Virus record (IMG/VR): IMGVR_UViG_3300002989_000005
Span: 1-53,829 of that record
Direction: 5' to 3' (one strand)
Source: a virus
Taxonomy: Duplodnaviria > Caudoviricetes
Length of the DNA stretch: 53,829 nucleotides
The stretch's first letter is position 1. Each line of letters starts with the position of its first letter. Of this stretch, positions 1,927-53,583 are shown in pieces. The position numbers and the translations under genes were made by a program. The notes below the pieces were generated by a model that worked only from the letters and a program-made list of their open reading frames with translations, made no database searches and was not told the DNA's origin.

Positions 1927-2460
1927 TTATATTAAATATTGTTTTATCTTTTCTTCAATTTCTGTTATTCCAATATATTTCACTTTTTCTTTTTTATTTT
2001 TTTCTTCAACTTCATGCTTAGTTATTATTATAAACTCAAATTTCGCTTTTCTTTCATTTAATATATTAATAATTTCATTTATCTTTTTAGCTTTTGTTCG
2101 GTTAAAAATATCAACTTCTAATATTAATATTATCCCCTCTTTTAGGATAAATATACAATCAACCTTATTCTTTTTTATTTTATATTCCCTCTCCATAAAT
2201 TCTAATTTATCTTTTAACAGAATAACCACATCGGTTATAACCAAACTATGGAAGCTTGGCATTTTTTTTAAATAGTAAACCTTTTTACCCAATACTGGAT
2301 GAATTTCAACCTTTAAAAATTTATTAGTACTTAGTATTTTTAATCTATTTGCAGCTATATCATAGCTTGGGAAAAACAATCTTTGCACTTGATCTATTGT
2401 TACCCCTAGGTTTTTCTCTATAAAATTAATAATATCTATATCCCTATTTGTTAATTTCAT
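1927..2460 (-). CDS. wHTH plus PD-(D/E)xK protein, replication-relaxation-like
   Basis: LTNRDIDII...TIDQVQRLFF...RLKIL N-terminus; EREY...VD...LEVD nuclease-like motif; overlaps the FtsK gene. Confidence 0.6.
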   Translation of the reverse strand: MKLTNRDIDIINFIEKNLGVTIDQVQRLFFPSYDIAANRLKILSTNKFLKVEIHPVLGKKVYYLKKMPSFHSLVITDVVILLKDKLEFMEREYKIKKNKVDCIFILKEGIILILEVDIFNRTKAKKINEIINILNERKAKFEFIIITKHEVEEKNKKEKVKYIGITEIEEKIKQYLI

Positions 2461-3634
2461 TTAACATGCTCAACACATTGTTTAGATCATTTTCAATTAC
2501 TGGAACAACTTCAATAGCTTTCCTTTCAATAATACTATTTTTTATATTTTTAGTTATATCTTCATGTTCTATTGCTAGAGTATGACCTTTGTAAGTATCA
2601 AGGTTTTTACATATAAACTCTCTCTCTTTAAGTAATGTAGCGGAGTTGTCACCCATTACTACCACACTCGTGGAACTATCCTTTATAGTTAAGCTTATTC
2701 TAGTTGTAAGTTGTGCTTTAATATCTGTTGGTATACTATCTGCGGTAGGTTTCTGCAATGAAGTAATGAGGAATATCCCACTACTGCGGCCTACATTTAC
2801 TAAGTTTTTTAGAAACCTTAAACATTCGGATTTTAACTTTTTTTCATCCTTACTATCACCCTTGCTTATATTAAGGAAGCTAAATTCTTCTATAACAACA
2901 TAATTATATTTTAATTTGTAAGTTCCTTTTTTGTTGAAATCTTCTACATTATATATTCCTTTAGTGTTATCTATGAGAATTTCTCTCTTTTGAAGTTCTT
3001 CGTCTATAGCCTGTAAGCTGTCTCTTACATCAGATAAAGATTTACTATATGATATTACCTGTTTGCAATTTTGGAATACACCTAGATCATTTTTTCTAAC
3101 TTGTAATAGGTGTATAGTAACGTTCGAATTGTAAATCAAATTAGTCAGTATAGCTAATAATAATCTACTCTTACCAGTTCCAGTATCTCCACCTATCAGT
3201 ACGTGAGGAAATTTATTAAGATTTACAATTACGTTTTCTGAATGTGTATATCCAATATAAATCTCATAAGGTTTTAAATACATAGGTTCATATCTTATAT
3301 TTTCAAAAGGTTTTGTTATAAAAATAATTTCTATCATACTTTTATTTTCAAGTCTCTTAAATTCCATATCTTTTGCACCTGTATTAGTAAGAAATGTATC
3401 CTTTAGTTTTTCAATATTTTCTAGCCCTATTCCATAAGGTACTCCAACCCTAAGTTTATACCCATAGTCTAGATCATTGACCTTTCGTACCCTTAAGCTC
3501 TGTTGTTTATTATTAAATAACCCAGCCTTTTCTACTATTTCTCTAAAATCACTTTTCACTTTTCTTTCTTGAAAATTATATAGCTTTAAAATACCCAATA
3601 CACATCCTGTGCACGTTGCTAACTCCCAGTACAT
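2444..3634 (-). CDS. FtsK/SpoIIIE-family ATPase
   Basis: PHVLIGGDTGTGKS Walker A, VVIEE Walker B, GRSSGI...Q.P motif, N-terminal hydrophobic anchor. Confidence 0.9.
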   Translation of the reverse strand: MYWELATCTGCVLGILKLYNFQERKVKSDFREIVEKAGLFNNKQQSLRVRKVNDLDYGYKLRVGVPYGIGLENIEKLKDTFLTNTGAKDMEFKRLENKSMIEIIFITKPFENIRYEPMYLKPYEIYIGYTHSENVIVNLNKFPHVLIGGDTGTGKSRLLLAILTNLIYNSNVTIHLLQVRKNDLGVFQNCKQVISYSKSLSDVRDSLQAIDEELQKREILIDNTKGIYNVEDFNKKGTYKLKYNYVVIEEFSFLNISKGDSKDEKKLKSECLRFLKNLVNVGRSSGIFLITSLQKPTADSIPTDIKAQLTTRISLTIKDSSTSVVVMGDNSATLLKEREFICKNLDTYKGHTLAIEHEDITKNIKNSIIERKAIEVVPVIENDLNNVLSMLNEINK

Positions 3635-3645
3635 AAATACACCTC

Positions 3646-3735
3646 CTACATTAATGCGGACATTATAACCACAGAGAGAGAGAATATAAGAGTAATAATA
3701 AATGATTTATAAGTAATTTCATGTAATCTTTTCAC
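3646..3735 (-). CDS. 29-aa single-TM peptide (not in ORF track)
   Basis: GAGGTG RBS, GTG start, MKRLHEITYKSFIITLIFSLSVVIMSALM; fills the operon gap. Confidence 0.55.
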   Translation of the reverse strand: MKRLHEITYKSFIITLIFSLSVVIMSALM

Positions 3736-3746
3736 ATTTTCACCTC

Positions 3747-3944
3747 TTATAATTGAAATAATGTTTTAATATTATTAAATAAACCTGACATTAATCCTGC
3801 CACTATCCCAACTATCATTAAGATGGCTGCAAAATTTATTATTGTTGCCATATCCTGCTTTTTAGCACCTACTAATATTTGCTCGATAACTACTACTACT
3901 AACCCTACGCCACCCAGTTTAAAGAGTAAATTCATATCTAACAT
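3747..3944 (-). CDS. spoIIIAC: SpoIIIAC/AD-family membrane protein
   Basis: D..LLFKLGGVGLVV.VI.QIL..AKKQDMA...LF..IKTLFQL closely follows the SpoIIIAC pattern. Confidence 0.8.
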   Translation of the reverse strand: MLDMNLLFKLGGVGLVVVVIEQILVGAKKQDMATIINFAAILMIVGIVAGLMSGLFNNIKTLFQL

Positions 3945-3945
3945 A

Positions 3946-4044
3946 TTAATTCCATCTCCTTTTAATATAAATTTTATAGATAATTAATGCACCTATGCAT
4001 ATGAATGCAAATCTTATAAAACTGTCTATACTATTTGGTAACAA
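3946..4044 (-). CDS. 32-aa single-TM peptide (not in ORF track)
   Basis: GAGG RBS, TTG start, ...FIRFAFICIGALIIYKIYIKRRWN. Confidence 0.5.
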   Translation of the reverse strand: MLPNSIDSFIRFAFICIGALIIYKIYIKRRWN

Positions 4045-4066
4045 TTCCAATAACCTCAAATCAAAA

Positions 4067-4237
4067 TTACTCGGCTCTGGCATTCCATTCCCCCTGATCT
4101 AAATGCTTAATGTAAAATTCAATAGCATTTTTCACAAACTTAGATTTTTCCTCACATGACTCTACGTATATAAATAATCTAGTATCTCTAGTTTTACTAT
4201 TGAAACTTACTTGAACTGTCTGTGAATCTTTCGACAT
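4067..4237 (-). CDS. 56-aa ribbon-helix-helix-like protein (not in ORF track)
   Basis: MSKDSQTVQVSFN...KSKFVKNAIEFYI; alternating beta strand and S-x-F-V helix motif; AGGTAGGG RBS. Confidence 0.6.
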   Translation of the reverse strand: MSKDSQTVQVSFNSKTRDTRLFIYVESCEEKSKFVKNAIEFYIKHLDQGEWNARAE

Positions 4238-4356
4238 CTTTTACCCTACCTTTCATTCATCCTTTAATATATAGTATGGATAAATTATAGAAAGATTCCA
4301 ATATTTTAAAATATAATTTTATATTTTTGGATTAATTGCATAAAAAAAGATATGGT

Positions 4357-4557
4357 CTATTCTGAATACCATATCTCATTTACTGTTTTATTTAATTTTT
4401 TAGCAGTTTCAAAAGCAACATCCAATGTAGGCTTACTCACGCGTGTTTCCCAGTTGGAATATGTTGTGTGATTTATCCCTAACATTTTGGAGAAATCTTT
4501 TGAATTCATAGCATATTCCCTCATCCTGATTTCCTTAAGTCTATTCTTAAGCCCCAT
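4357..4557 (-). CDS. XRE-family HTH regulator
   Basis: LKNRLKEIR...TYSNWE...P.LDVAF..AKKL...VNEIW. Confidence 0.85.
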   Translation of the reverse strand: MGLKNRLKEIRMREYAMNSKDFSKMLGINHTTYSNWETRVSKPTLDVAFETAKKLNKTVNEIWYSE

Positions 4558-4577
4558 ATAAACACCTCATCATTAGC

Positions 4578-5387
4578 TTATGTTAATTCCAACAGTTGTT
4601 TTTTCTTTGCATCAAATTCTTCCTGAGTAATAATAGCATTATCTAGTAAATTCTTATACTTTAATATTTCATCGGCATTAGATGTTATACCTACGTTATT
4701 ATATTCTTCTACCACCTCTTGACTATTACAAATCAATTGTAATAATGATAAACATTCTTGTGCTGAGTTGTATAAAGATTTATATACGAAGCCACTTTTT
4801 TTAGTTGCAGTTGTCAGAAACTTAATATAAACTACTGGATTATTCATGTTGTTAATTGTAATCTTTATTTTCAGGCTATTGCATATTGATCTACTTTTCC
4901 TGCCAGTTACGCCACCAACAACTGCAGCTGCACCTCCCAATAATACTCCACCTACTAAAGCTCTACCTAATCCCCCCTTAGTAATGGATTCTTCATCTTC
5001 TAATAGTTCAAAATCAACAATATCACTATAGTTGTAGATTTTAGGATGCTTTTTGCCACCAAATAAACCATCAGGTATAAGCCACTTTTTTTGGTTATCA
5101 TCAAATTCTATAAATGTGCTAAATTTCTTTGTAGGGATAAATGACAAAAGTTCTGACTGCTCTACATTTTGAGTAATTATTGCGGCATCAGTCTTTACTT
5201 GTCTATCAATTATTGCAATCTTTATTTCTTCTGCTGTCATCATTAAAACTGGTTTAGCTGTACGAAGTCCCCCGCATTTTTTAAAGCATTCACGGCATAT
5301 CCATCCCTTATTCTTAATTGCGTTTCGGTTTAAACCAATCTCATTGTCACAAATTGAACATATTGCTTTTAAGCTAAAAAATCCCAT
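4578..5387 (-). CDS. Zn-finger/PH-like/SHOCT moron protein (DUF4428-like)
   Basis: CxxC...CxxC, Gly-zipper hydrophobic segment, C-terminal ADEILKYK.LLD..IITQEEFDAKKKQLL (SHOCT). Confidence 0.8.
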   Translation of the reverse strand: MGFFSLKAICSICDNEIGLNRNAIKNKGWICRECFKKCGGLRTAKPVLMMTAEEIKIAIIDRQVKTDAAIITQNVEQSELLSFIPTKKFSTFIEFDDNQKKWLIPDGLFGGKKHPKIYNYSDIVDFELLEDEESITKGGLGRALVGGVLLGGAAAVVGGVTGRKSRSICNSLKIKITINNMNNPVVYIKFLTTATKKSGFVYKSLYNSAQECLSLLQLICNSQEVVEEYNNVGITSNADEILKYKNLLDNAIITQEEFDAKKKQLLELT

Positions 5388-5596
5388 ATCACCATCGCCT
5401 CTCTTGCATTTATATTCTACTTAACTTCCATATATCCTTTTTATAAAAAAATAAGCCTATAATCAGTATTTAAATTTAACTAAATTTAATTGAGTTTTAA
5501 TTAAATTTCTCCAGCCTCAGGCATAAATTTCTTTTATTTACTAAATGAACTGATTAAAATTTAATTTTTACTACATCTTCTTCTTAATCTAATTTT

Positions 5597-5758
5597 CTAT
5601 TGCAATAAATCTTTTCTTAGTTTTATCATTAATTCATCCAATTGTGAGTGTGAAAGCATTCTTATTAAGGATTTAGCAACTACCTCTGCTTGTCGTTCTT
5701 TTAGACATTGAATTCCTTCTTTAGTTTGCGGATAATTTACAACTACTTTAATTGCCAT
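5597..5758 (-). CDS. 53-aa hypothetical protein (not in ORF track)
   Basis: AAGGAGG RBS; MAIKVVVNYPQTKEGIQCLKERQAEVVAKSL...; downstream of the LexA-like gene. Confidence 0.7.
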   Translation of the reverse strand: MAIKVVVNYPQTKEGIQCLKERQAEVVAKSLIRMLSHSQLDELMIKLRKDLLQ

Positions 5759-5806
5759 TATACCCTCCTTTACTTTTTACAAGCCTTATAATTTTTTTCT
5801 TAAATC

Positions 5807-6055
5807 TTAATAGGTTTTGCTATTATCTTCATGAAACCACTCCTCAGGATATCTTATAATATGTAACGTTCTTGGCATATTCTCATTTTTAGCGACATAA
5901 CCTTTTGTTTGCAATCGATCTAAATGCCCTTGTATTGTTGATGTTGATCTTTTGTTTAAAGCTGTTGCCAATTCCCTCACCGTTGGTGAGTATTTATTAT
6001 CAACTATAAAGTCATCAATTGCTTTTAGGACCTCATTTTGCTTTTTAGTAATCAT
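5807..6055 (-). CDS. Stand-alone LexA N-terminal DNA-binding domain
   Basis: TKKQ.EVL..I..F.....YSPTVREL.....STSTIQGHL.RL..KGY......PRTL; no S24 peptidase domain; GGGAG RBS favours the ATG at 6055. Confidence 0.85.
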   Translation of the reverse strand: MITKKQNEVLKAIDDFIVDNKYSPTVRELATALNKRSTSTIQGHLDRLQTKGYVAKNENMPRTLHIIRYPEEWFHEDNSKTY

Positions 6056-6080
6056 TTGCTCACTCCCTTTATTTAACTTA

Positions 6081-6109
6081 ATTATAGCGAACAAACGTTC
6101 TAATGTAAA
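6081..6109 (-). promoter_or_regulatory. SigA promoter with LexA box in the spacer
   Basis: -35 TTTACA (6104-6109), 17 bp, -10 TATAAT (6081-6086); CGAAC-AAAC-GTTC at 6088-6100. Confidence 0.8.
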
Positions 6110-6196
6110 GAGTAAAATAATGGTTGTTACAATTTAAAAATAAATAGTAAATAACTTAAGTTATGGTTAAACTAATAAAAAAGAGAGGTGTCAAAA

Positions 6197-7003
6197 ATGG
6201 CTGTAGCTCATAAAACAGTAATTAGCTTTGGACTTGTTGCTATACCAATTAGTATGTATACAGCAACTCAGGACAACGACATACATTTTAATCAATTACA
6301 CAAAGAAGATAATTCGAGAATAAAATACAGAAAATCTTGTAGTCATTGTGGTAAAGAGATCACAACAAAAGATATTATCAAGGGATATGAATATGATAAG
6401 GATCATTACGTAGTTGTAACGGATGATGATTTAGAAAAGATAAAAACTGAAAAAGAGAAATCAATACAGATAATGCACTTTGCACAATTAAATCAGATCT
6501 CACCAATTTATTATGATAAAACATATCAAGCTGCTCCTTTAGCTGGTGGTGACAAAGCATTTGAATTACTACGTGCTGCACTTATGAGTGAGCAGAAAAT
6601 CGCAATAGGTAAGACAGTAATGGGAACTAAAGAAACATTACTTGCTATAATTCCCCGCGAGGATGGAATATTAATCTCTACAATGTATTATCAAGACGAA
6701 ATTAAAGACCTTGCTAAGAGCTACAATAAGCCTGACTTAGTAGAAGATGAGGTCACAATGGCTAAGGCATTAATTAACTCTATGATTACTCCTTTCGAGC
6801 CTACTAAATATAAAGATGAGTATCAAATGAAGTTACGAGATTTACTTGAAACTAAAATAGCAGGTAAAGAAATTGTTGCTGCTAAATCTGAAACTCCAGG
6901 TAATGTAATTAATTTAATGGATGCACTTAAAGCAAGTATTGAACAAAATAAAGTTAAGGAAACTCCTAAGACGCCACGTAAAAGAACTCCCAAAGGCGCG
7001 TAA
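6197..7003 (+). CDS. ku: Ku DNA end-binding protein
   Basis: ISFGLVAIP..MY.AT....I.FNQLH......IKY...C..CG......IIKGYEY...Y.DEY...NVINLMDALKAS and a basic tail. Confidence 0.95.
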   Translation: MAVAHKTVISFGLVAIPISMYTATQDNDIHFNQLHKEDNSRIKYRKSCSHCGKEITTKDIIKGYEYDKDHYVVVTDDDLEKIKTEKEKSIQIMHFAQLNQISPIYYDKTYQAAPLAGGDKAFELLRAALMSEQKIAIGKTVMGTKETLLAIIPREDGILISTMYYQDEIKDLAKSYNKPDLVEDEVTMAKALINSMITPFEPTKYKDEYQMKLRDLLETKIAGKEIVAAKSETPGNVINLMDALKASIEQNKVKETPKTPRKRTPKGA

Positions 7004-7935
7004 TGGATCTATTTGAAAGTAAAGATATTAAACCTATGTTGATTGGTGAAAATCAAGAAGCTTTTGATAGCCCCGACTATATTTACGAGTTAAAACTAGA
7101 TGGTGAAAGATGTATTGCTTATTTGGATAAAGACGTTACAGAGCTGCGCAACAAACGAAATATGAAGATGCTTACTAAAGTACCTGAGCTTTCTAGTATA
7201 CACAAACAAGTCAAACAGCGTTGCATACTGGATGGTGAATTAATCGTTATTAAGGATGGTAAGCCAGATTTTTATGAGATTCAGCGGCGATCACTTATGT
7301 CCAACAGCTTTAAAATTCAACTTGCATCATCTAAATTACCAGCCACTTTCACCGCCTTTGATATTCTCTACTATAACGATCACTCTGTAATAGGTTTACC
7401 TTTAATGGAACGTAAAAAATTGCTAGAAAAGGTGATTAAGGAAAATGAGCGAATTGCTATTTCCCGATATATAGAAGAACAAGGAATTCAGTTTTACCAA
7501 CTTGCTAAGCAAAATGACCTTGAAGGTATTGTTGCTAAAAGAAAAGATAGTAAATATTATCTCGACAAGAAAACTAAGGACTGGATTAAGATAAAATATC
7601 TATTGGATGATGATTTTGTGGTGTGTGGATATATTTTAAAAGAGCATGGCATAATTAGCATTGTACTTGGTCAATATTTTAAAAAGGAATTAATATATAA
7701 AGGTCATGTTACATTGGGAATATCAACAGAAGATTTCCAAATAATAAAATCTACACCCGAAAGTTCACAACCTTTTAATGTATTACCTTCTGGAAATGAT
7801 AATGCAGTATGGATTGAACCTATGCTTGTATGCATAGTAAAATTCATGATGAAAACAGCAAATGGTGGTTTGCGACAACCTGTATTTAAAGGTCTTCGAG
7901 ACGATAAAGACCCTAAAGAATGTACTGTAAATTAG
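7003..7935 (+). CDS. ligD: ATP-dependent DNA ligase (LigD ligase domain only)
   Basis: YELKLDGER, LDGEL, AFDIL, EGIVAKRKDSKY, WIKIK, LRQPVFKGLRDDK; stop/start overlap with ku. Confidence 0.92.
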   Translation: MDLFESKDIKPMLIGENQEAFDSPDYIYELKLDGERCIAYLDKDVTELRNKRNMKMLTKVPELSSIHKQVKQRCILDGELIVIKDGKPDFYEIQRRSLMSNSFKIQLASSKLPATFTAFDILYYNDHSVIGLPLMERKKLLEKVIKENERIAISRYIEEQGIQFYQLAKQNDLEGIVAKRKDSKYYLDKKTKDWIKIKYLLDDDFVVCGYILKEHGIISIVLGQYFKKELIYKGHVTLGISTEDFQIIKSTPESSQPFNVLPSGNDNAVWIEPMLVCIVKFMMKTANGGLRQPVFKGLRDDKDPKECTVN

Positions 7936-7946
7936 TGGAGGTAATT

Positions 7947-8153
7947 ATGGATATGAAAAAAGTCAAAGAATTTTCTACGGATGCTATCTATGAGATTAAA
8001 CAAATGGTAACTATTATTGAGGACCAAACACAGGAAATTGATGAATTAAAGGATAAACTTGAGGATTGCCAAATAGAGGATTTAAATGTGTATCCAAATT
8101 GTGCTACAGAAGAAATTGAATTTGATAGTGAATATGACTTTTACGATAAATAA
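7947..8153 (+). CDS. Small very acidic hypothetical protein
   Basis: GGAGG RBS; D/E-rich coiled coil with an acidic-aromatic tail. Confidence 0.7.
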   Translation: MDMKKVKEFSTDAIYEIKQMVTIIEDQTQEIDELKDKLEDCQIEDLNVYPNCATEEIEFDSEYDFYDK

Positions 8154-8174
8154 CTTTGGTATCTGGTATTTAAT

Positions 8175-8285
8175 GTGAATAAAATTTCTATGATAGTCTA
8201 TAATTTAAATAACATCCTTTTTAATGTAGATAATAACGAACTAATGCTGTACTGGGTTCCCCCCAAGTATAGCATTTTTATTTTA
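8175..8285 (+). ncRNA. Candidate small RNA, copy 2 (with promoter)
   Basis: TATAAT at 8199-8204; hairpin 8244-8275 with TTCCC loop and T-tract; homologous to 48-160. Confidence 0.5.
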
Positions 8286-8384
8286 CTGGGATTGAAAAGA
8301 GTATAGTTTTCTTTTAAAACAAATCTTATAAAAAGCGAAAAAACTATGCCACTATATAAGCGCATAGTCTTTATCTTAATTTTC

Positions 8385-8678
8385 TCAAATAGAAAATTCT
8401 TTGGTCCTAATATATCCATACTTTTTATTAAATACAGTTATGAGATTAGTCTCTTCATTCTCATGATATATATCAGCAATTCCACTATCAATAATTGCAC
8501 CATCAATTGGAATTCCTATGACTTCCTTATTCCCAATGAAATAAACATAGTCATCCTTAACTTCAATGTCTTTAACTACAATACTTGTTTCTCGGTTATC
8601 ATTGGTGCAATTAGCAAAACATGTAATGCCTATAATATTAGCTTTAAACTCTTTTATGAATGGTATAATTGGATCCAT
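8385..8678 (-). CDS. Hypothetical protein
   Basis: 97-aa ORF with GGGGTG RBS. Confidence 0.7.
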   Translation of the reverse strand: MDPIIPFIKEFKANIIGITCFANCTNDNRETSIVVKDIEVKDDYVYFIGNKEVIGIPIDGAIIDSGIADIYHENEETNLITVFNKKYGYIRTKEFSI

Positions 8679-8838
8679 GAATTCACCCCTTTTATTTATG
8701 CAATTATTATATATAATATTTTAAAATTAATAAAATATTACTTATTCTTTATAAAATTCTAAATACTTTTATGTTCTTTAAAATTTTACAAAAAAATTAA
8801 AAAGCACCAGGGCTCAGAGCTATTAAATATGTTTACCT

Positions 8839-8982
8839 TTACTCCAACTTACATGAATAATATTGAAAAATAAGCTTGTCTAATTCTTGACTTACCAAAA
8901 TAACTTCACTATCAATAAGGCTATCAGTAGCTAGTACTAACTTTTCTAATTTACTTCTAAGTAATTCCGCTTGCTCACTCAT
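8839..8982 (-). CDS. Spo0E-like aspartyl-phosphate phosphatase (not in ORF track)
   Basis: MSEQAELLRSKLEKLVLATDSLIDSEVILVSQELDKLIFQYYSCKLE; SQELD signature; GAGGGG RBS. Confidence 0.85.
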   Translation of the reverse strand: MSEQAELLRSKLEKLVLATDSLIDSEVILVSQELDKLIFQYYSCKLE

Positions 8983-9106
8983 AATTTATTCCACCCCTCA
9001 CAAAACTCACAATTTCTATAATAATACATCTTAAATCCAATTGCAACATAAACTTCTAAATTTTAGTAAAAATGGAAAGCTCCAAGGCATCCCTCAGAGC
9101 TTCTAA

Positions 9107-9304
9107 TTATTTTCTAATTTCTATATCAATATTCTTTATAGTCTTATTCATTTTTTTCTTTAGTAAGTTACCATAAAACTTTGCAATAAAAGGAAATAAA
9201 GTTTTAAGTGTATTATAAAAGTTCAATTTTCTATCAAGTTTCCCTAATTCGGTATCATATTTCTTCAATATTTTATTTTTATAAATAACATCAGAACTAT
9301 TCAT
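9107..9304 (-). CDS. Small basic hypothetical protein
   Basis: AGGGAGG RBS favours the ATG at 9304. Confidence 0.6.
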   Translation of the reverse strand: MNSSDVIYKNKILKKYDTELGKLDRKLNFYNTLKTLFPFIAKFYGNLLKKKMNKTIKNIDIEIRK

Positions 9305-9364
9305 TCTTAAAACCTCCCTTCTATTTATATTATACAACTAATTTTATAAAGCTTCACCTTGTTT

Positions 9365-10399
9365 TTAATCAGATTCTTCATTTGTTGTTTTAAAGTAAAA
9401 TTGATTCGATAACAATTTTTTATTTTCTTCACTTCTACTCAAAATTTTACCATTAATTTTCATGTCGGGGTGAGCTGTTAACAGAGTATTTGTTTCTTTT
9501 ATTATGAAACCGAAAGATTCACGTTCTATAACTAATTCTTCTTCCATATTAAATCCACTTTCTTGAAATTTTTTTGTTAGATCAAACTCTGTTTGTATTA
9601 TAGCAATACTTTCTGCTATATTGGTTTTTTTACCTTGTAGTGTGCAGTTTTTAGTATGATACTCAAAAATATAATTAATGAATTTATCAATTACCTTTAA
9701 AATTATACCAAACCCTGTTGCTAAAATAGCTAAGCTTCCAGATTCTAATCGTACAAATTTTAGTGGTTGATCAATCACTGATAATCCGGCAACTACACAT
9801 AATTTTTCGTATATATTGTTCAAATTCTTGAATGATTCAGCAGCCTCAGTTATTGTATTTCGCTCGTCTAAGAATCTTATGCTTAAAACCTCTTCACTAT
9901 TTGGCTCATACCCATGTGACAAGGTTTGATTAATAGAATTTATATGTCTTACTGAGTCTATAATTTTATCGTATTCATGCAATATTGTAATTATAGATTG
10001 TACTACCTTGATATATTCTTGTGAAAAAGTTCCTTTATCTTTAATTCCTTTAAAAGCATGTATGATTTTATAACCATCCATAATTTTAGTAGCAAAATCG
10101 TCTGTAAGAATATTATCTTTCTCCAATAGTCTTAAATCTTTTAAAACCATTTTAAGTGAGCTAAAATCAATATCAATAAGGACATCTCTAAAATTAGATC
10201 CCTGAGCTTGAGTAGCATTTGTTAAATTAGCTACATTTTGAGCTGCACTTAATCCCCCTCCATAAATGAGGCTAAATGAACTAGCACACCATGCATAATG
10301 TATTGTAATAGCCTTTCTAAATCCAATTATTATTTCATCTAATTCGTGCAATGCCACCTCTTTATTGTTGTTTTCATCTACAATGTCATTAAAAATCAT
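9365..10399 (-). CDS. Hypothetical moron protein (344 aa)
   Basis: Long ORF with its own promoter and structured leader; family not recognised. Confidence 0.8.
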   Translation of the reverse strand: MIFNDIVDENNNKEVALHELDEIIIGFRKAITIHYAWCASSFSLIYGGGLSAAQNVANLTNATQAQGSNFRDVLIDIDFSSLKMVLKDLRLLEKDNILTDDFATKIMDGYKIIHAFKGIKDKGTFSQEYIKVVQSIITILHEYDKIIDSVRHINSINQTLSHGYEPNSEEVLSIRFLDERNTITEAAESFKNLNNIYEKLCVVAGLSVIDQPLKFVRLESGSLAILATGFGIILKVIDKFINYIFEYHTKNCTLQGKKTNIAESIAIIQTEFDLTKKFQESGFNMEEELVIERESFGFIIKETNTLLTAHPDMKINGKILSRSEENKKLLSNQFYFKTTNEESD

Positions 10400-11651: not shown

Positions 11652-12110
11652 TTATTGTGTTGCTACAATAGTTGCTACCGGATCCGTAACTGGTAAACTT
11701 TCAACTTCAATTTTAACATCTGCTTCATCTGTAACAGGATCATAAGCTGGTGCTAATAAAGTTTCAACTTGATTATTAACCTCTCCAACTACTGATTCTC
11801 TAAAATGATCTAATTGTGATTGCGTTAATGTTGGGAACTTGGCTAATAATAATTTATCAAACATTGTAGCTTTTAAGGTGCCAGCACTTGGTATTAACTT
11901 AAATAGCTGTTCTACTTGATAAAAGATTCCCTTAGCTACTAGTGCATGAGAATTATAAGTATCTACGCCTATTTTGACCGCCTCAGCCTGTTTCTTTTTA
12001 CTAAGGTATGAAAACACCATTGTAATTAAGGCTGTCGTAGCAAGCCCTAGTATAGTAAATAAACCATTGAATAATATTGTAGAAATTCCATTTAATAATG
12101 TATTTGTCAT
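11652..12110 (-). CDS. Holin (LL-H-like)
   Basis: Single N-terminal TM segment, basic residues after it, VEQ...G..K motif; adjacent to endolysin. Confidence 0.7.
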   Translation of the reverse strand: MTNTLLNGISTILFNGLFTILGLATTALITMVFSYLSKKKQAEAVKIGVDTYNSHALVAKGIFYQVEQLFKLIPSAGTLKATMFDKLLLAKFPTLTQSQLDHFRESVVGEVNNQVETLLAPAYDPVTDEADVKIEVESLPVTDPVATIVATQ

Positions 12111-12126
12111 TAATATTCCCCCTAAA

Positions 12127-12834
12127 TTATATTAGTATTTTAAATGATTCAAAACCTTTAGCTTTTAACTCTGCTATTCTTGCGTTTGCATTTGCTTCAT
12201 CCGAAAAACTACCTGTAATAACTCGATATGTTTTATCACTTGCAACTACTTTTGGAATAACAACTACTGGTTTAATTACTACCACTGGTTTAACTATTAC
12301 TACTGGGACTGGAATATCTTTACCAGTAACTCCTTTTACAATTGCATTAGCTAACTTTGTGACATTGTATTTATTACAATCTGTTTTAGTATCACAGAAG
12401 AAAGGTTCAACCAATATAGCTGTAGCCTTTGTATATTTAAGCACATATAAATTAGTCCTTGAAATACTACCTCTATTAGTAAATCCTAGCATTGCAATTT
12501 GTGCTGCTATTCTATCTGCATAAACTTTCCCAGTTGCTGAGATATATTCAACCTCACAACCCTGTGCCACGTTAGTTTTAAAAGCATTTACATGACAAGA
12601 TATAACTAAGTCTAAACTTAAACTATTTGCCTTGTTGACCCTATAGGCTAGACTTTGCGCTAAGGTTAACCCTGATTGTGTAGGAGTAATATTATATACG
12701 GTATGCCCTAATTTTTGAAACCCAGCTATTACTAGCGCCCCATATTGTCTATTTACTGTTGTTTCTACTAAATAACCTGCGGCACCAGTATCACCACCAT
12801 TTAGTGTATGACCTAAATCAATTCCTATTCTCAT
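12127..12834 (-). CDS. Endolysin: N-acetylmuramoyl-L-alanine amidase (Amidase_3) plus SPOR domain
   Basis: IGIDLGH...E, SCHVNA, AILVEPFFCD; Pro/Val/Lys linker; YRVITGSFS...NA......LKAKGF. Confidence 0.93.
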   Translation of the reverse strand: MRIGIDLGHTLNGGDTGAAGYLVETTVNRQYGALVIAGFQKLGHTVYNITPTQSGLTLAQSLAYRVNKANSLSLDLVISCHVNAFKTNVAQGCEVEYISATGKVYADRIAAQIAMLGFTNRGSISRTNLYVLKYTKATAILVEPFFCDTKTDCNKYNVTKLANAIVKGVTGKDIPVPVVIVKPVVVIKPVVVIPKVVASDKTYRVITGSFSDEANANARIAELKAKGFESFKILI

Positions 12835-12853
12835 ATTTTCCTCCTCCATCTAT

Positions 12854-13261
12854 CTATCTATTAAATAACCATATAAAAAGTCCTATAATATTACTTCCTA
12901 TAACCGTAATTGCTATCCATTTAGTTTTTGTTGCATTTTCGGCAGGGAGTGATTCTATATGAGTTACTTTCTTTTTAGTATCTTTTAGATCTGCGCCTAT
13001 ATTATTTATGTCAACGGTTTGCTTGTCGGTAACAGTCTTTAAATTAAATGCTAAAATTTCCGTTTGAGTAGCCTTATCTAAAGTTTTAGCCACAGAGGAA
13101 GTTATACTAGCTAAGTTAGCCATAATCTGAGCTTGATATATTTCAGCCTTCCCGTTATCTTTGTCCATTTTATTTATAATTACTGAGTTATTTTCTGATT
13201 TCTCTTGTAACTTTGTAACGTCTTTTTCTAATCTATCTACTCTATAATTATCATCTGCCAT
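12854..13261 (-). CDS. Lysis-associated coiled-coil protein with C-terminal TM (XhlA-like)
   Basis: GGAGG RBS then ATG at 13261; RVDRLE coiled coil, KWIAITVIGSNIIGLFIWL. Confidence 0.7.
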   Translation of the reverse strand: MADDNYRVDRLEKDVTKLQEKSENNSVIINKMDKDNGKAEIYQAQIMANLASITSSVAKTLDKATQTEILAFNLKTVTDKQTVDINNIGADLKDTKKKVTHIESLPAENATKTKWIAITVIGSNIIGLFIWLFNR

Positions 13262-13363
13262 TATAATTACCTCCAATTTTTTATTCTCATCATTTGTTGG
13301 AGGATATATTAAAAAATATGTCCTTCTTGATTTGCCCCCATTAAATGGAGGCATTTTTTTAAC

Positions 13364-13390
13364 TTATAACCACCAAAGCCACCAAGGCAT
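13364..13390 (-). CDS. Trp-rich leader peptide MPWWLWWL
   Basis: GAGGAGGTGAG RBS (13396-13406), ATG CCT TGG TGG CTT TGG TGG TTA TAA. Confidence 0.6.
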   Translation of the reverse strand: MPWWLWWL

Positions 13391-13417
13391 ATATTCTCAC
13401 CTCCTCGATTTTGGGCA

Positions 13418-13443
13418 TAAAAAAGACACCCTTTCGAGTGTCT
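13418..13443 (-). terminator. Intrinsic terminator
   Basis: AGACACTC-GAAA-GGGTGTCT followed by a T-run. Confidence 0.8.
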
Positions 13444-13565
13444 ATATTGTGTTATTCAATTATTACGCTAATTACGTAGTATATTCCTATTGACATTTAT
13501 ATCCATTATTACGCTAAACTAAGCAATATCAACGGTTAACAACTACTAACAATTATTAACAATTA

Positions 13566-13781
13566 CTATTGCGCAACAACTATTTCTTCATATAATTCTT
13601 GCAAACAATTATTATCTTTTGCCTTTTGAATTATTTTTTCTAAAATATCAACATGTCTTTTGTTTTCATCCTCTTCATCCAGGAGATTATATTTTTTTAG
13701 TAACATACAACGTCGAACATACGATAGCTCTACGAAACCATAAGTTAAATTTTTAAAGTTTATATTTGGATAATCTTTCAA
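13566..13781 (-). CDS. Hypothetical moron protein
   Basis: 71-aa ORF, AGGGGG RBS, TTG start. Confidence 0.6.
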   Translation of the reverse strand: MKDYPNINFKNLTYGFVELSYVRRCMLLKKYNLLDEEDENKRHVDILEKIIQKAKDNNCLQELYEEIVVAQ

Positions 13782-13831
13782 TGTTTTGCCCCCTTTTTAT
13801 TCAAAGGAAAAGACACCCAAATTGGATGCCT

Positions 13832-13999
13832 TTATCTTCTTAATTTCTTTAATTCTTCTTTTTCTTTTTCATCTGCAATGAGTTCGCGCATTTTTGCAGA
13901 AACCCAGGGCGAAACTCTAAGTCCTAATTTCTCTGCATATATGCGAAATTCTTCGTAAAGCTCAGGTGGAATTGTAATATTAACTGCTTTTCTAGCCAC
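13832..13999 (-). CDS. 55-aa RHH (CopG/Arc-like) protein (not in ORF track)
   Basis: MARKAVNITIPPELYEEFRIYAEKLGLRVSPWVSAKMRELI...; GGGGTG RBS, GTG start. Confidence 0.75.
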   Translation of the reverse strand: MARKAVNITIPPELYEEFRIYAEKLGLRVSPWVSAKMRELIADEKEKEELKKLRR

Positions 14000-14200
14000 A
14001 TAAACACCCCCATATAAGGGGTATTATACATTAAAATGTACAAACTGTCATAATCACACGCATAACTATTTGCTTATGTGTGTTAGTACGTGTAATATTC
14101 CTAAGTAGTCAGAATATCTATATAAATTTCATTAATTTCATTTAGAAAAAGGGTAATAAAAAAGCACTCATATTTGAGTACACATCATTACCCTTTTAAA

Positions 14201-14359
14201 TTAAACTACTGGTTCTTCTACTATCGGATTACCATATCCATCAAGTCCTATTGCGGATAAGTCTGCTAAAACTGCTTCTTTGCATTGTGGTAGCACTTGG
14301 TCAATTGTTCTTCTATGTGCCATTATTAAAGCTACATAAGCATCTATTAAAGATTGCAT
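14201..14359 (-). CDS. CD1375-like small tail-region protein
   Basis: AYVALI....RTIDQV.P..KEAV...L...GLDGYG; AGGAGG RBS favours 14359. Confidence 0.7.
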   Translation of the reverse strand: MQSLIDAYVALIMAHRRTIDQVLPQCKEAVLADLSAIGLDGYGNPIVEEPVV

Positions 14360-14396
14360 TGTATCACCTCCTAAAAGTAATTTTAAAAGCCAAAAC

Positions 14397-14522
14397 CTAA
14401 GCATTATCTGCATCAAGCAAGGCTTGAACTGCGACTTTGAATTGCGGAAGTATAGTATCTATAGTTCGCACCCCTGCCTTTATAAGTTTATAGTAAGCTG
14501 TTATTAATGCATTGTCATCCAT
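14397..14522 (-). CDS. Second CD1375-like paralogue (41 aa, not in ORF track)
   Basis: MDDNALITAYYKLIKAGVRTIDTILPQFKVAVQALLDADNA. Confidence 0.7.
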   Translation of the reverse strand: MDDNALITAYYKLIKAGVRTIDTILPQFKVAVQALLDADNA

Positions 14523-50574: not shown

Positions 50575-50916
50575 CTAAAAATTCTTACCTGAAGCAAAGG
50601 CACGTATTGATGGCTTGTCCTTATAATTCATCCTGTTAATTTGAATTTGTATTTTTCTTCTAATGGGCTTAACTGTCTGCTCCAGTTGTGGTACAATTAT
50701 CTCGAATGTTTTTTTAAGATACTTTTCTTTTTCCCATGGATCCATTGGTGTGGATCCATTTTTCTTTCTCAGCTTCAATAAAATATCTACTTTCATTTCT
50801 GCAGCTAACAGTTGAATGGCTGCAACTTCGATAAACTCAGTAGCAGCATAATTGAAATTTTGCTCTGCTTGTTTTAAATCCATAATAGCTTCGGTGATTC
50901 CACTATTTCTCTTCAT
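50575..50916 (-). CDS. YaaL/DUF2508-like protein
   Basis: L.QAEQNFNYA..EFIEVA..QL.AAE.K...LL. Confidence 0.6.
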   Translation of the reverse strand: MKRNSGITEAIMDLKQAEQNFNYAATEFIEVAAIQLLAAEMKVDILLKLRKKNGSTPMDPWEKEKYLKKTFEIIVPQLEQTVKPIRRKIQIQINRMNYKDKPSIRAFASGKNF

Positions 50917-50927
50917 TTATATCCTCC

Positions 50928-51125
50928 TTAATACCCCTCAATTTCTCTAATTTTATCTTCATATCTTTTAATATTTCTTTTAGCATCCATCGTTGCGCTG
51001 TGTTCTACTCCATGACTAAATTTAAGTAGTCCTCTAAGACGTTCTCTCTCTCTTTCTAAATTTTCTTTCCAAAACAGTAAATCGACTTTAGATAATTTTT
51101 GATTAAATGATGCGTTGCTTTCCAT
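50928..51125 (-). CDS. Hypothetical protein
   Basis: AAGGAGG RBS; 65 aa. Confidence 0.7.
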   Translation of the reverse strand: MESNASFNQKLSKVDLLFWKENLERERERLRGLLKFSHGVEHSATMDAKRNIKRYEDKIREIEGY

Positions 51126-51269
51126 TGGTGCCTCCTTTATTAATTTATTTTAGTAAGCATTGCGCTTATTTTGAAATGTTGTCATATTGCGATATTCATT
51201 GAATATATTAAAGTGTGAAGTATTGGGTTTTTTAGATATGAAATAAATTTTTATTTAGGCTTCTCAGCC

Positions 51270-51512
51270 TTATAATTGTTTTTTCTCAGTAGTTATTTTT
51301 TCTAACCATTTCATAAACATTTCTCTGTTGATCAATGTTTTTATGCCTACCTTAAATGCTGGAAAATCATTTGTGAATGTTAACTCTGTTAATTTTTCTC
51401 TACCTATACCACTTACCTCTGCAGCTTCTCTTATAGTCAGTGTTAATTTTGGTTCCTTAGGCTGCATACATTCCTTTAGCATTTCTTTTAACTGATCCTT
51501 TGTAATCTCCAT
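51270..51512 (-). CDS. xis: Excisionase (HTH_17)
   Basis: LTI.EAA...GIG...L......FP.FKVG.K.LI.R..F..WL. Confidence 0.85.
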   Translation of the reverse strand: MEITKDQLKEMLKECMQPKEPKLTLTIREAAEVSGIGREKLTELTFTNDFPAFKVGIKTLINREMFMKWLEKITTEKKQL

Positions 51513-51746
51513 TTACTCCGCCACCTTTACATCAGGGAAGAAAACTGCCTGGACACTTTCTGAAAGTGCATCTGCTATTTTCTGCATTGCTTCTCTTGAT
51601 GGATTTGTTCTATTGTCATTTTCTAAATTAGAAATATAACTGGCTGTTAATCCTGTTAATTCTGCAATTTTATAAACTGAAAATCCAAGTTTATTTCTAT
51701 AAAACTTTATCTTGGTCAACTTGTTCACCTCCGCTTCGTGTTCCAT
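51513..51746 (-). CDS. Cro-like XRE regulator
   Basis: HTH, divergent from the repressor; real start probably the TTG near 51719 after GGAGGTGA. Confidence 0.85.
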   Translation of the reverse strand: MEHEAEVNKLTKIKFYRNKLGFSVYKIAELTGLTASYISNLENDNRTNPSREAMQKIADALSESVQAVFFPDVKVAE

Positions 51747-51909
51747 GAGAATACAATATCATGTTCTATGAGAATATGTAAAATGTAGCATGTCCCTTTA
51801 GAACTCATTAGAATAAATTACCATGTTCTGTGGGAATATATCTCTCTATTTCTTCTATTTACTATTGACTTCATATTCTAATAGCATATAATGTATTCTA
51901 GGAGAACAT
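51738..51909. promoter_or_regulatory. Genetic switch: six 17-bp operators and divergent promoters
   Basis: Variants of ATGTTCT-N3-AGAACAT at 51738, 51761, 51790, 51823, 51873 and 51893; TTGACT-16-TATAAT at 51865-51892. Confidence 0.8.
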
Positions 51910-51963
51910 AATTTATACTTTAATAGTAATTAATACTTTAAGAATATATCGGAGGAATTATAT

Positions 51964-52395
51964 ATGATACTCGGTGACAATATAAAAAAAATAAGAGAAT
52001 GGAAAGAATTAGGATTAAATGAACTAGCAAGAATTGCTAATATGAACGCTAGCTATCTTTCAGCAATCGAGCAAAATAAAAAGACTAATCCATCTGTTAA
52101 AACCTTAGAAAAAATTGCTGATGCACTTGGTGTTTCTTCTAAAGATTTTTTTAGGACCGAACCAATGAGTAATGAAGAATCTTTAATGGAATCATATGAG
52201 TCAAGTAGAGAAAATAGAAATATTATTCCTACCAAGTTTACAAAGATATACGAAGCACGTGAGTATTTAGAAATGCATCAAATATTAGCAGCTGAAGGAT
52301 TTGATTTAAGCAAAATGAATGATGAAGATGTCCTAGACTTTGCAAATGAAATGTTAAAACAAATGAAACTTATAAGCTATAAATATAAAAAATAA
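51964..52395 (+). CDS. Immunity repressor (XRE, ImmR-like, no peptidase domain)
   Basis: N-terminal HTH, acidic helical C-terminus; upstream of int. Confidence 0.88.
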   Translation: MILGDNIKKIREWKELGLNELARIANMNASYLSAIEQNKKTNPSVKTLEKIADALGVSSKDFFRTEPMSNEESLMESYESSRENRNIIPTKFTKIYEAREYLEMHQILAAEGFDLSKMNDEDVLDFANEMLKQMKLISYKYKK

Positions 52396-52416
52396 GTTTA
52401 TGAAAGGGATAGTACT

Positions 52417-53583
52417 ATGGCACGTAAGATAAATATTGAAATAAACGGAAAAGAATATTATAGGATAACTTCTTCTTTTGGGAGAGGTAGTGATGGGAAA
52501 TTAATCAGAAAAGCATTTTATGGTGATTCTAAAAAAGATGCTGAAGCTAAACGAGATGAATATAAACTAGGGATGAAAAATGGATTAAACAAAGATTTTA
52601 AAAATGTTTCATTTGGTGATCTAGTACATTCATGGTTATTCGAGACAATAAGAATATCAAATAAAATTAAGCCCTCCACCTTTGAAAGATATGAGGGCAT
52701 TTATCGTAATTATATTAAAGATAGTATATTGTATGGACTAAAGCTAAGTGAGTTAAAATCTATTCAGATACAAAGATATTATAATAAATTACTTAAAGAT
52801 GGTAAAAGCAGTAATGTAATTAATAATCTGAATAAGTTAATTAAATATTTTTTAAATTATGCAGTTGACGAAGGATATTTAATTAAAAATCCCTGTAATG
52901 GTAAAACAATTGTTATACCTGGAGAATCTGTAAAAGAGACAGAGGTTAGACCATTTACTGATAATGAAATTATTCTTTTAAGGGCTGTATTAGATAGCCA
53001 TAGACTAAAGGCATTATTCTTATTGGATTTAGCTACTGGATTACGACAAGGCGAACTCTTAGGGCTTAAATGGTCTGATATAGATATGATTAATAAAGAA
53101 TTGCATGTAAAAAGAAGTTTAAAACAAGTAAGTATAATATCCGCGGATGGAACTAGAAAACGTAAAACCATTGAGCAAATACCCAAAACAAAGGGTTCCA
53201 TAAGAACTGTTCCTATTCCTAATAATTTAATAAATATATTAAAGGCTCACAGCTCTATTCAAAAACAAGAAAAACTTAAAGCTGGATCATCCTATAAAGT
53301 TAGTGATTTTGTATTTACTACTGAGGTTGGTACCACGATTGATGCTAGGAATATAACTAGGCAATATGAAAGATTATTAATAAGGACTAAAATAGATTAT
53401 AGGAAATTCCATTCTATGAGACATACTTATGCTACAAAGTTATTTGAAAGAAATGTTAAATTAAAAACTGTATCTAAATTATTAGGTCATAGTAGCATAG
53501 CAATTACTGCTGATATTTATACTCATGTAATGCCAAAAGAGAAAAATGATGCTGCTAATTCTATTGATGATTTATTTGATTAA
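52417..53583 (+). CDS. int: Tyrosine integrase
   Basis: TGLRQGELLGL.W, PKT..S.R, FHSMRHTYAT, LLGH, T..IY.H. Confidence 0.96.
   Translation: MARKINIEINGKEYYRITSSFGRGSDGKLIRKAFYGDSKKDAEAKRDEYKLGMKNGLNKDFKNVSFGDLVHSWLFETIRISNKIKPSTFERYEGIYRNYIKDSILYGLKLSELKSIQIQRYYNKLLKDGKSSNVINNLNKLIKYFLNYAVDEGYLIKNPCNGKTIVIPGESVKETEVRPFTDNEIILLRAVLDSHRLKALFLLDLATGLRQGELLGLKWSDIDMINKELHVKRSLKQVSIISADGTRKRKTIEQIPKTKGSIRTVPIPNNLINILKAHSSIQKQEKLKAGSSYKVSDFVFTTEVGTTIDARNITRQYERLLIRTKIDYRKFHSMRHTYATKLFERNVKLKTVSKLLGHSSIAITADIYTHVMPKEKNDAANSIDDLFD

Follow-up and report, generated by a model that had tools for sequence, protein, structure and literature searches.

How can an open reading frame (ORF) of eight codons, half of them for tryptophan (Trp), stand at the head of a phage lysis operon, and what could it do there? 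The question is raised by a 53.8-kb IMG/VR virus record (IMGVR_UViG_3300002989_000005; estimated completeness 94%, G+C 31%), the whole 53,829 nucleotides (nt) of which are referred to here as the window. On its minus strand the lysis genes are preceded by a mini-ORF, or upstream ORF (uORF), encoding MPWWLWWL (13390-13364). An earlier reading made from the letters alone (the sequence-only reading) took it for a leader peptide that, with competing hairpins, gates the lysis genes according to Trp-tRNA availability or translation rate. Comparison with relatives recovered from IMG/VR, metagenome contigs and Clostridiaceae genomes indicates that the mini-ORF is a real and probably translated element, and favours, tentatively, an action different from that switch.

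Anatomy and conservation of the mini-ORF

Along the minus strand the order is a ribbon-helix-helix (RHH) gene, a GTPase-associated adaptor domain (GAAD) gene, a terminator, an A-rich spacer, a Shine-Dalgarno sequence (SD), the mini-ORF, a leader, a gene for a 135-residue protein, an endolysin gene, a holin-like gene and a second terminator. The first terminator (13443-13419), identified by reading the sequence and by a terminator scan, is AGACACTC-GAAA-GGGTGTCT, with an 8-bp stem, a GAAA loop and a T-run. A spacer of the form ATG-YNM-AAA (13407-13418), conserved among the relatives, links the T-run to the near-perfect SD GAGGAGGTGAG (13406-13396), and the mini-ORF reads ATG CCT TGG TGG CTT TGG TGG TTA TAA. 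Hairpin A (TGCCTCCAT/ATGGGGGCA, 13353-13333), predicted by RNAfold with 9 bp including one G-U and a UUA loop, begins 10 nt past the uORF stop and is followed by the imperfect hairpin B (13326-13299) and by a stem (13270-13303) in which an anti-SD, CCUCCAA (13303-13297), pairs with UUGGAGG (13276-13270), the SD of the first lysis gene. The ATG of this gene is at 13261, giving a leader of 102 nt after the uORF. Apart from the spacer, these elements, including the four TGG codons among eight and the terminator just upstream, lie where the sequence-only reading had placed them. A search of Rfam with E up to 10 over 12500-14500 gave only chance-level matches far under the gathering scores, and the window and its relatives gave no consistent match to the sigma-A promoter consensus, whether in the interval from terminator to gene or, as a conserved feature, immediately before the terminator hairpin.

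The same reading had proposed a search for Trp-rich uORFs upstream of homologous lysis genes, and these were found in seven further loci. Mini-ORFs led by an SD and opening with a Trp/aromatic cluster occupy the equivalent place in the window and in L005, L046, L003, L010, L175, L179 and L195. They encode MPWWFWWL in L005 (305-331), MPWWLWLLLH in L175 (1383-1415), MFWWWWF in L046 (2442-2465), MWYWYIFFSTIRY in L003 (2898-2939), MFWFWFMSMVSGTNL in L010 (1684-1731) and MFWFYWFYSMVIL in L179 (1992-1951, minus strand); the openings found among the last three are MWYWYIFF.., MFWFWFM.. and MFWFYWFY... The eighth, MVAMFFWWLWL in L195, was located through the shared hairpin on a contig whose end cuts off the downstream gene. 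The peptides are 7-15 residues long with unrelated tails. At least two TGG codons are present in every locus, and three relatives retain only two Trp, with Phe or Tyr alongside. The downstream proteins of these loci, called XhlA-like for reasons given below, are 30-98% identical to one another.

The mini-ORF accompanies the XhlA-like gene and not the endolysin, which at these loci has four architectures (Amidase_3 with SPOR, with PG_binding_1 or with SH3_3, and Amidase_2). Among 17 loci of the XhlA-like family having at least 150 nt upstream (L006, L008 and L011, with 94 nt or less, were omitted, and L195 lies outside the count), it is present in seven, degenerate in one and absent in nine. 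A tree of 16 proteins places all mini-ORF loci in one clade of ten rows (support 96/97), to which L177 and L178 also belong without having a mini-ORF; none occurs in the outgroup of six. The degenerate case, L004, is a 195-kb viral contig in which the XhlA-like gene (2977-3390) stands alone: no endolysin adjoins it, and the next gene lies on the other strand. The contig retains AGGTGA-N6-TGGTGGTGG (ATC TGG TGG TGG), with no canonical start, 150 nt upstream of the gene.

Trp accounts for 1.06% of the 10,637 residues in the long minus-strand ORFs of the phage, and the naive binomial P for at least four of seven codons being Trp is 4e-7. In a background of 146.6 kb, comprising both strands of the window and the first related loci, 258 mini-ORFs of up to 30 codons possess an SD and a start; only four have at least two Trp in their first eight residues, and all four lie upstream of the XhlA-like family. 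The corresponding figure is 0 of 264 for 15 endolysin-related viral loci. Ten Clostridiaceae endolysin loci taken with L046 yielded 2 of 205 with two Trp, both unrelated (MRVWLNRW and MKLWWNRGISLH) and at other positions. Throughout IMG/VR the exact motif ATGNNNTGGTGGNTNTGGTGGTT has 19 matches, all lacking an SD and in other contexts. The motif GAGGTGA-N3-7-ATGNNNTGGTGG has at least 118, of which 80 were inspected and 36 of these are ORFs of 30 codons or fewer; among those inspected, the terminator-plus-intergenic context occurs in the L046 contig only, and by eye the others were assigned to coding or GC-richer regions. The mini-ORF is not a product of chance and represents a genuine element at the head of the lysis operon.

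Several features bear on its translation. In each of the eight loci an SD and an in-frame start codon precede the TGG codons, the start lying 0-1 codon ahead of the first TGG in seven and three codons ahead in L195 (MVAM-FFWW). Between the mini-ORFs of L010 and L179 there are three synonymous changes (TTT/TTC, TTC/TTT, GTT/GTA) and an in-frame indel of TAT, and synonymous Leu changes separate the window from L175 (CTT/TTA) and from L005 (TTA/TTG). Replacements of Trp by Phe or Tyr each cost two base changes and retain aromaticity. Because of the synonymous changes and the in-frame codon indel, the mini-ORF is likely to be translated. In seven of seven loci its SD exceeds the SD of the downstream gene in strength, by 2.3-7.0 kcal/mol, and in the window its predicted duplex of -17.5 kcal/mol compares with a median of -11.4 and a strongest value of -17.7 among 36 long ORFs; these energies refer to a generic anti-SD. 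The ATG directly after the T-run is no consistent start, its ORFs spanning 4-24 codons in differing frames. A longer hydrophobic peptide from this ATG (19 residues in the window) was considered and rejected, as neither frame nor length is conserved (MQKR-stop in L046, MQKN-stop in L193, five codons in L194).

The 5' part of the leader extends beyond the XhlA-like clade. The terminator hairpin, T-run and AATGCAAAA-like tract of the window are 83-91% identical to those of L046 or L003, the proteins of which are 40% and 68% identical to that of the window. The hairpin motif, defined as GCACTCG-NAAG-NGTGTC plus a T-run with up to two mismatches, was found at 23 places in 15 of 30 genomes of one Clostridiaceae genus; a reversed control gave none. 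The block of hairpin, T-run, AATGCAAAA and strong SD is common to prophage leaders with differing first cistrons. In L177 and L178 the leader SD directly drives the XhlA-like gene, and in L199 a Phage_holin_4_1 gene. In L190 and L194 it is followed by a start-stop, ATG TAA, with good spacing in the former and 11-nt spacing in the latter, and in L193 the homologous position holds a six-codon ORF, MWISIG-stop. L202 possesses a non-aromatic mini-ORF of 7-10 codons, a hairpin and an anti-SD:SD stem ahead of a Phage_holin_4_1 gene, and the anatomy is therefore not peculiar to the Trp-rich version. To judge from these comparisons, prophages of one Clostridiaceae genus share a lysis-operon leader made up of the terminator, A-rich tract and strong SD, of which the XhlA-like clade has kept the version with the Trp-rich peptide.

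Two side observations concern this block. The recurrent hairpin terminator (loci L188-L209) stands behind phage and non-phage genes alike, many instances being ordinary gene ends. In L199 (about 1524-1976) the ATG after the T-run is in frame with Phage_holin_4_1 and would add an 11-residue Lys/Glu-rich extension (MRKYKEKEGIN-MDKG...), an arrangement resembling dual-start holin/antiholin genes.

Leader folding and the possible action of the mini-ORF

In the window leader as folded by RNAfold, hairpin A and the CCUCCAA:UUGGAGG stem are present in the minimum free energy structure as well as in the centroid, and the SD stem prevails over hairpin B. Pairing of the gene SD with its anti-SD, claimed in the sequence-only reading, is thus borne out by the fold, and so is the mutual exclusion of hairpin B and this stem, in the window and in L005. 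The leader has a z-score of -2.4, with 6 of 200 shuffles folding at least as well. The probability of the gene SD being unpaired is 0.22-0.29 in the window and 0.10-0.12 in L005; it is predicted to be sequestered in both and, with the leader folded alone, in L010. In the unrelated holin leader of L202, with its non-Trp mini-ORF, the downstream SD is likewise predicted to be sequestered.

The leaders after the uORF (34, 44, 75, 85, 102, 105 and 143 nt) are unrelated in sequence except for those of the window and L005. A stable hairpin occurs 7-19 nt past the uORF stop in five of the seven loci folded (z-scores -1.7 to -5.7), and its recurrence despite unrelated sequences suggests a structural role. 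Hairpin A is followed on the sense strand by AAAUCAAG and not by a U-run. The corresponding hairpins of the relatives mostly lack one as well; since none follows in the window, L005 and L179, the hairpin there is not an attenuator terminator, and no sense-strand terminator was found between uORF and gene in the window.

Ribosome footprints were then masked at the uORF start, the last Trp codon and the stop, with the unpaired probability of the gene SD as readout. For no mask, start, last Trp and stop, respectively, the values are 0.22, 0.21, 0.24 and 0.31 in the window, where the fold is essentially unchanged; 0.12, 0.17, 0.17 and 0.13 in L005; 0.13, 0.63, 0.61 and 0.54 in L046; 0.35, 0.16, 0.30 and 0.49 in L003, where the anti-SD is located inside the uORF; and 0.72, 0.40, 0.59 and 0.75 in L010.

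The plus strand deserves a remark here. The sequence-only reading had cautioned that hairpin A might instead end an antisense RNA. This does not hold for hairpin A, where the G-U pair becomes a C-A mismatch, but has some basis for hairpin B, which pairs better on the plus strand (12 pairs including G-T) and is followed by a T-rich tail. Hairpin B (window 13299-13326; L005 368-398, antisense) could end an antisense RNA over the SD and start of the XhlA-like gene; the plus-strand promoter matches, at 13133-13161 and 13029-13057, are weak (9/12).

The reading given preference, with a confidence just short of even, is that the mini-ORF would be a translated, cis-acting leader mini-cistron that tunes lysis-gene expression. 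Transcripts reading through the terminator at 13443-13419 would contain the A-rich tract and, beyond it, the SD that is strongest in the region. There ribosomes would load, translate 7-15 codons opening with a Trp/aromatic cluster, and stop about 10 nt ahead of a stable hairpin, the XhlA-like gene being served by its own weaker SD, sequestered in the window. Ribosome capture, joined by a longer dwell time that the rare Trp codons or the aromatic nascent chain would bring about, would determine the amount of lysis message that survives and is translated. This might be achieved by protection of the read-through transcript, by control of access to the second SD, or by both, and would be distinct from a terminator/antiterminator switch of the trp-operon type.

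This interpretation starts from the anatomy, the conservation at the peptide level, the relative strengths of the SDs and the use of the same 5' block to drive other first cistrons; from these we infer translation, the action in cis and likewise any role of the Trp supply. A start-stop cannot work via a peptide, so that the role shared among the leaders lies most simply in cis. The occurrence of start-stops and unrelated mini-ORFs at one and the same position speaks for the capture of ribosomes at the head of the lysis message. The SD of the mini-ORF is very strong and lies 12 nt past the T-run; message stabilisers have a strong SD near the RNA 5' end, where this one may or may not lie.

Several points weigh against it. 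Occupancy of the uORF is not consistently tied to the gene SD: masking changes nothing in the window and L005 and opens the SD in L046, whereas its effects are mixed in L003 and run the other way in L010. In L175 and L179 the gene SD is not sequestered, and L003 and L046 are ambiguous in this respect. If ribosomes were simply parked in cis, start-stops or non-Trp mini-ORFs would do, as they do in other leaders, and the retention of a Trp/aromatic peptide beside proteins of only 30-40% identity would go unexplained; the conservation at the peptide level is only half accounted for. Moreover, the RNase set of the host is assumed from Bacillota in general, and the sample is a small one of eight loci in which the window and L005 are near-identical.

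That conservation is better accounted for by an unlikely alternative, in which the mini-ORF would encode a trans-acting fMet-Trp/aromatic micropeptide of 7-15 residues, itself a product of the lysis cassette. At the membrane interface such a peptide might disturb or depolarise the membrane, or act on the XhlA-like protein and the holin, and so help to set the time of lysis; alternatively it might leave the lysing cell as a signal to its neighbours. Selection appears to act on peptide character, the aromatic hydrophobic N-terminal cluster being kept as length and tail vary, and seven uORF peptides are within the 14 most membrane-interface-seeking of 940 SD-led mini-ORFs (on an interfacial hydrophobicity scale). 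The strongest SD of the operon serves the mini-ORF, hairpins on both sides of the ORF in five of seven loci would suit a stable mini-message, and the mini-ORF travels with the XhlA-like gene rather than the endolysin. A functional gene of seven codons followed by a hairpin has a precedent in mccA (PMC4231749). Against this, a peptide acting on a specific target would seldom be 7-15 residues long with C-terminal tails that are unrelated among loci, the variable length is awkward, and the peptides are too short for a membrane span. No receptor (TPR/RRNPP-type), exporter or modifying enzyme was found among ten ORFs scanned from the window ends (1927-10399 and 50575-53583), and homologous leaders possess start-stops or non-aromatic mini-ORFs. 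If real, the micropeptide would be the smallest lysis-cassette product known. A type I toxin-antitoxin system was also considered and rejected, since peptides of 7-15 residues fall short of the roughly 18 or more needed to span a membrane.

More doubtful is the proposal of the sequence-only reading itself, a Trp-tRNA sensor of the trpL/rtpLP type in which stalling would choose between hairpin B and the SD-sequestering stem and so couple lysis to the Trp supply. It agrees with the presence of two or more Trp codons in all eight loci, although Trp makes up 1.06% of residues in the long ORFs of the phage, with the mutual exclusion noted above in the window and L005, and with two relatives in which the geometry would permit it, namely L003, by its anti-SD within the uORF, and L046, where masking lifts the accessibility of the SD from 0.13 to about 0.6. 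In the window, however, a ribosome anywhere on the uORF reaches neither hairpin B nor the SD stem, and the unpaired probability moves only from 0.22 to 0.31 at most; the masking that the sequence-only reading had suggested thus reveals no common switch. Nor did the stems turn out to be conserved, hairpins A and B being confined to the window and near-identical L005. With unrelated leaders of 34-143 nt, no terminator after the uORF and inconsistent masking, a trp-operon-like switch by competing hairpins is not upheld. Of the four features that define a trp-type attenuator, the short leader ORF with tandem Trp codons is present; a downstream terminator/antiterminator, a fold set by the ribosome and genes of amino-acid supply are lacking, so that three of four fail. 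The genes controlled (XhlA-like, amidase, holin-like) are unconnected to Trp metabolism, and no tRNA genes occur in the window, hence there is no link through a phage tRNA-Trp. Related leaders have a start-stop or a non-Trp mini-ORF, and the Phe or Tyr standing beside the two remaining Trp in three relatives, where they partly substitute for Trp, points to a property of the aromatic peptide at least as much as to Trp-tRNA sensing.

Slightly less probable again is that the mini-ORF is untranslated, and that the polypurine SD, perhaps with the GGTGG repeats, works at the RNA level only, as a STAB-SD-like stabiliser that binds the 30S subunit or ribosome or as a protein-binding site. The SD is indeed the best-conserved part, and L004 retains its AGGTGA-N6 motif without a canonical start. 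As TGG has no synonymous codon, constraints on RNA and on peptide are inseparable at those positions. An in-frame start close before the first TGG in all eight loci speaks against an untranslated element, as do the synonymous changes at Phe, Leu and Val, the in-frame codon indel, and the change of TGG to TTY or TAY, which retains aromaticity rather than sequence.

A chance ORF or the remnant of a longer gene is hardly credible, for although AT-rich DNA often holds short ORFs and the window uORF is in frame with the gene 129 nt away, one position is conserved in eight loci against two unrelated matches among several hundred background mini-ORFs, the uORF-gene distances of 129, 132, 68 and 76 nt give differing frame relations with additional stops in L005, and no relative has a longer gene at the uORF position. 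The refuting condition named in the sequence-only reading, a uORF that is unconserved or the stump of a longer gene, does not hold. A read-through fusion of uORF and gene was tried as a separate candidate. The two share a frame in the window and in L005, where they are 132 nt apart and additional stops occur; in L046 and L003 their frames differ. Because of the differing frames and the extra stops, the uORF is neither a read-through nor a fusion product.

Lysis genes, neighbouring genes and host

The first lysis gene (13261-12854, minus strand) encodes the 135-residue protein, to which no Pfam or PHROG family was assigned. AlphaFold gives one long helix over residues 4-134 (mean predicted local distance difference test score, pLDDT, 78.5), and the protein is modelled as a coiled coil with a C-terminal membrane span, a tail-anchored build. 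Of 14 family members, 3 match Pfam XhlA (PF10779), the best E being 0.074, and the protein of the window is not among them; the name XhlA-like thus denotes predicted build and position only, membership of XhlA by sequence not being established. The family is rare, with 14 proteins among 5.8 billion clusters and 20 representatives at E up to 1e-3 among 1.84 billion. Ten representatives that were looked up come from metagenome-derived sources only (JGI/IMG, ENA, Logan). A search of IMG/VR with one family alignment found no more distant members, and tblastn with two family proteins found none among GenBank phages. In phage PBSX, XhlA is a membrane protein required together with the holin XhlB and the amidase XlyA (PMC5589764). 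As in xhlA-xhlB-xlyA, a small membrane protein stands alongside a holin and an amidase endolysin in the window, and position and the coiled-coil build with a C-terminal anchor agree; in the window, however, the holin-like gene comes after the endolysin.

The remaining genes of the operon, also on the minus strand, are an endolysin with Amidase_3 and SPOR domains by domain search (12127-12849) and a holin-like membrane protein of 152 residues (11652-12110; phrog_14669, E 1.6e-17; phrog_608 holin, E 3e-4). A terminator detected by the scan at 11642-11619 ends the operon.

Upstream, the tail-fibre genes are closed by a terminator at 14181-14164 (minus strand, terminator scan). Next comes the best sigma-A-like promoter match of the region, ATGACA-17-TATAAT (14023-14051, minus strand; 11/12, by consensus scan only), just upstream of the 55-residue Arc/CopG-like RHH gene (13832-13999, minus strand), which is assigned by RHH_5 (E 7.7e-4, under the Pfam cut-off) and phrog_3180, an Arc-like repressor (E 6.6e-4). 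The 71-residue GAAD gene (13566-13781, minus strand; PF19976, 29.0 bits against a cut-off of 23.6) sits between the RHH gene and the lysis leader, a place taken in L175 by an unrelated ORF of 88 residues. Given the RHH gene and the best promoter match ahead of it in the window, the lysis cassette may be its own RHH-controlled transcription unit, attenuated by the internal terminator at 13443-13419. An RHH gene of the Arc/CopG type is found upstream of the hairpin and uORF in three of the eight mini-ORF loci, namely the window, L046 (about 2232-2400) and L175 (684-893), the latter two being homologous to that of the window. That of L046 shows an apparent frameshift at an A-run (about 2330-2400), either a sequencing error or a genuine break; in the other frame its C-terminus resembles that of the window protein and ends at a TGA next to the hairpin.

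The window contains integrase and cI-like repressor genes, and most of its genes are on the minus strand; it is read as a temperate phage of Clostridiaceae. The host is most likely a member of Clostridiaceae, since the closest genome relatives of the endolysin belong to Clostridium and Clostridiaceae. Among cultured phages, blastn with the region and the same tblastn searches gave no match. The stretch was located in two DNA runs only, both possibly the source sample, with no RNA run listed. As a further observation, Ku (PF02735, E 6e-49) adjoins an ATP-dependent DNA ligase at 6188-7935 (plus strand), a non-homologous end-joining pair carried as phage cargo.

Comparison with known leader mini-ORFs and lysis controls

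Leader mini-ORFs are known in bacteria; what is new is the phage lysis setting, where none is known to have been described. In the full texts that the literature search covered, chiefly open ones, no paper was found to report a uORF rich in Trp codons within the lysis cassette of a phage, in agreement with the sequence-only reading, which knew of no phage lysis control of this kind.

The leader of the enterobacterial trp operon is the classical case of an amino-acid-sensing leader peptide with transcription attenuation. The window resembles it in having a short SD-led ORF with Trp codons upstream of genes. It differs in that its sole leader terminator lies upstream of the uORF with no terminator/antiterminator pair downstream, the leader RNA is not conserved, the targets are lysis genes and Trp is partly replaced by Phe or Tyr.

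In the erm and cat leaders, translation is attenuated by ribosomes stalled on short leader ORFs. Stalled ribosomes also control a sequestered downstream ribosome-binding site at the polycysteine short ORFs of mycobacteria (10.1101/834739). Common to these systems and the window is a tiny ORF with a run of one rare codon and, in the window, L005 and L010, a downstream ribosome-binding site held in a duplex. The ribosome footprint misses the sequestering duplex in the window and in L005, however, and the duplex is absent from L175 and L179. In contrast to the polycysteine ORFs, the window mini-ORF is SD-led and not leaderless, and it has no known link to a drug or metabolite.

The STAB-SD and phage SP82 elements are 5' mRNA stabilisers of Bacillota. 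In the hbs mRNA of B. subtilis, ribosomes initiating at a strong SD block RNase J1 (PMC5737220). The likeness here lies in a very strong SD, which may stand near the 5' part of the message and is preceded by a stem-loop, in a Bacillota-type host. Stabilisers need no conserved downstream structure, which fits the variable leaders of the present loci; they differ in requiring no Trp-rich ORF.

The mccA gene of the microcin C operon is a translated gene of seven codons followed by a hairpin, and ribosome binding governs the fate of its message (PMC4231749). Here too a tiny ORF stands at the head of an operon with a hairpin next, and mccA demonstrates that genes so small can be genuine. In mccA the hairpin acts as an intrinsic terminator and the peptide is the substrate of the adjacent MccB, whereas here hairpin A lacks a U-run, the neighbours of the mini-ORF are lysis genes with no adenylating or other modifying enzyme adjoining, and the host and the phage-lysis context differ.

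Minimal start-stop ORFs and the bar minigenes of phage lambda, the physiological role of which is itself uncertain, are SD-led ORFs of one to a few codons, and the ATG TAA of L190 and L194 places such an ORF in homologous leaders. The window ORF differs in encoding a conserved aromatic peptide. It appears to be one version of a wider Clostridium prophage leader in which a terminator and a strong SD precede a mini-ORF or start-stop, followed by a hairpin and an often-masked second SD. With about 200 nt it would offer a compact system for separating the cis-acting from the peptide-mediated roles of a bacterial uORF, and it illustrates how function can hide in ORFs far under annotation thresholds.

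Finally, lysis timing decides the burst size of a phage and is known to be controlled through dual-start holin/antiholin pairs, the concentration of holin and late transcription. To these a conserved Trp-rich mini-cistron heading the lysis operon would add a translational or micropeptide layer.

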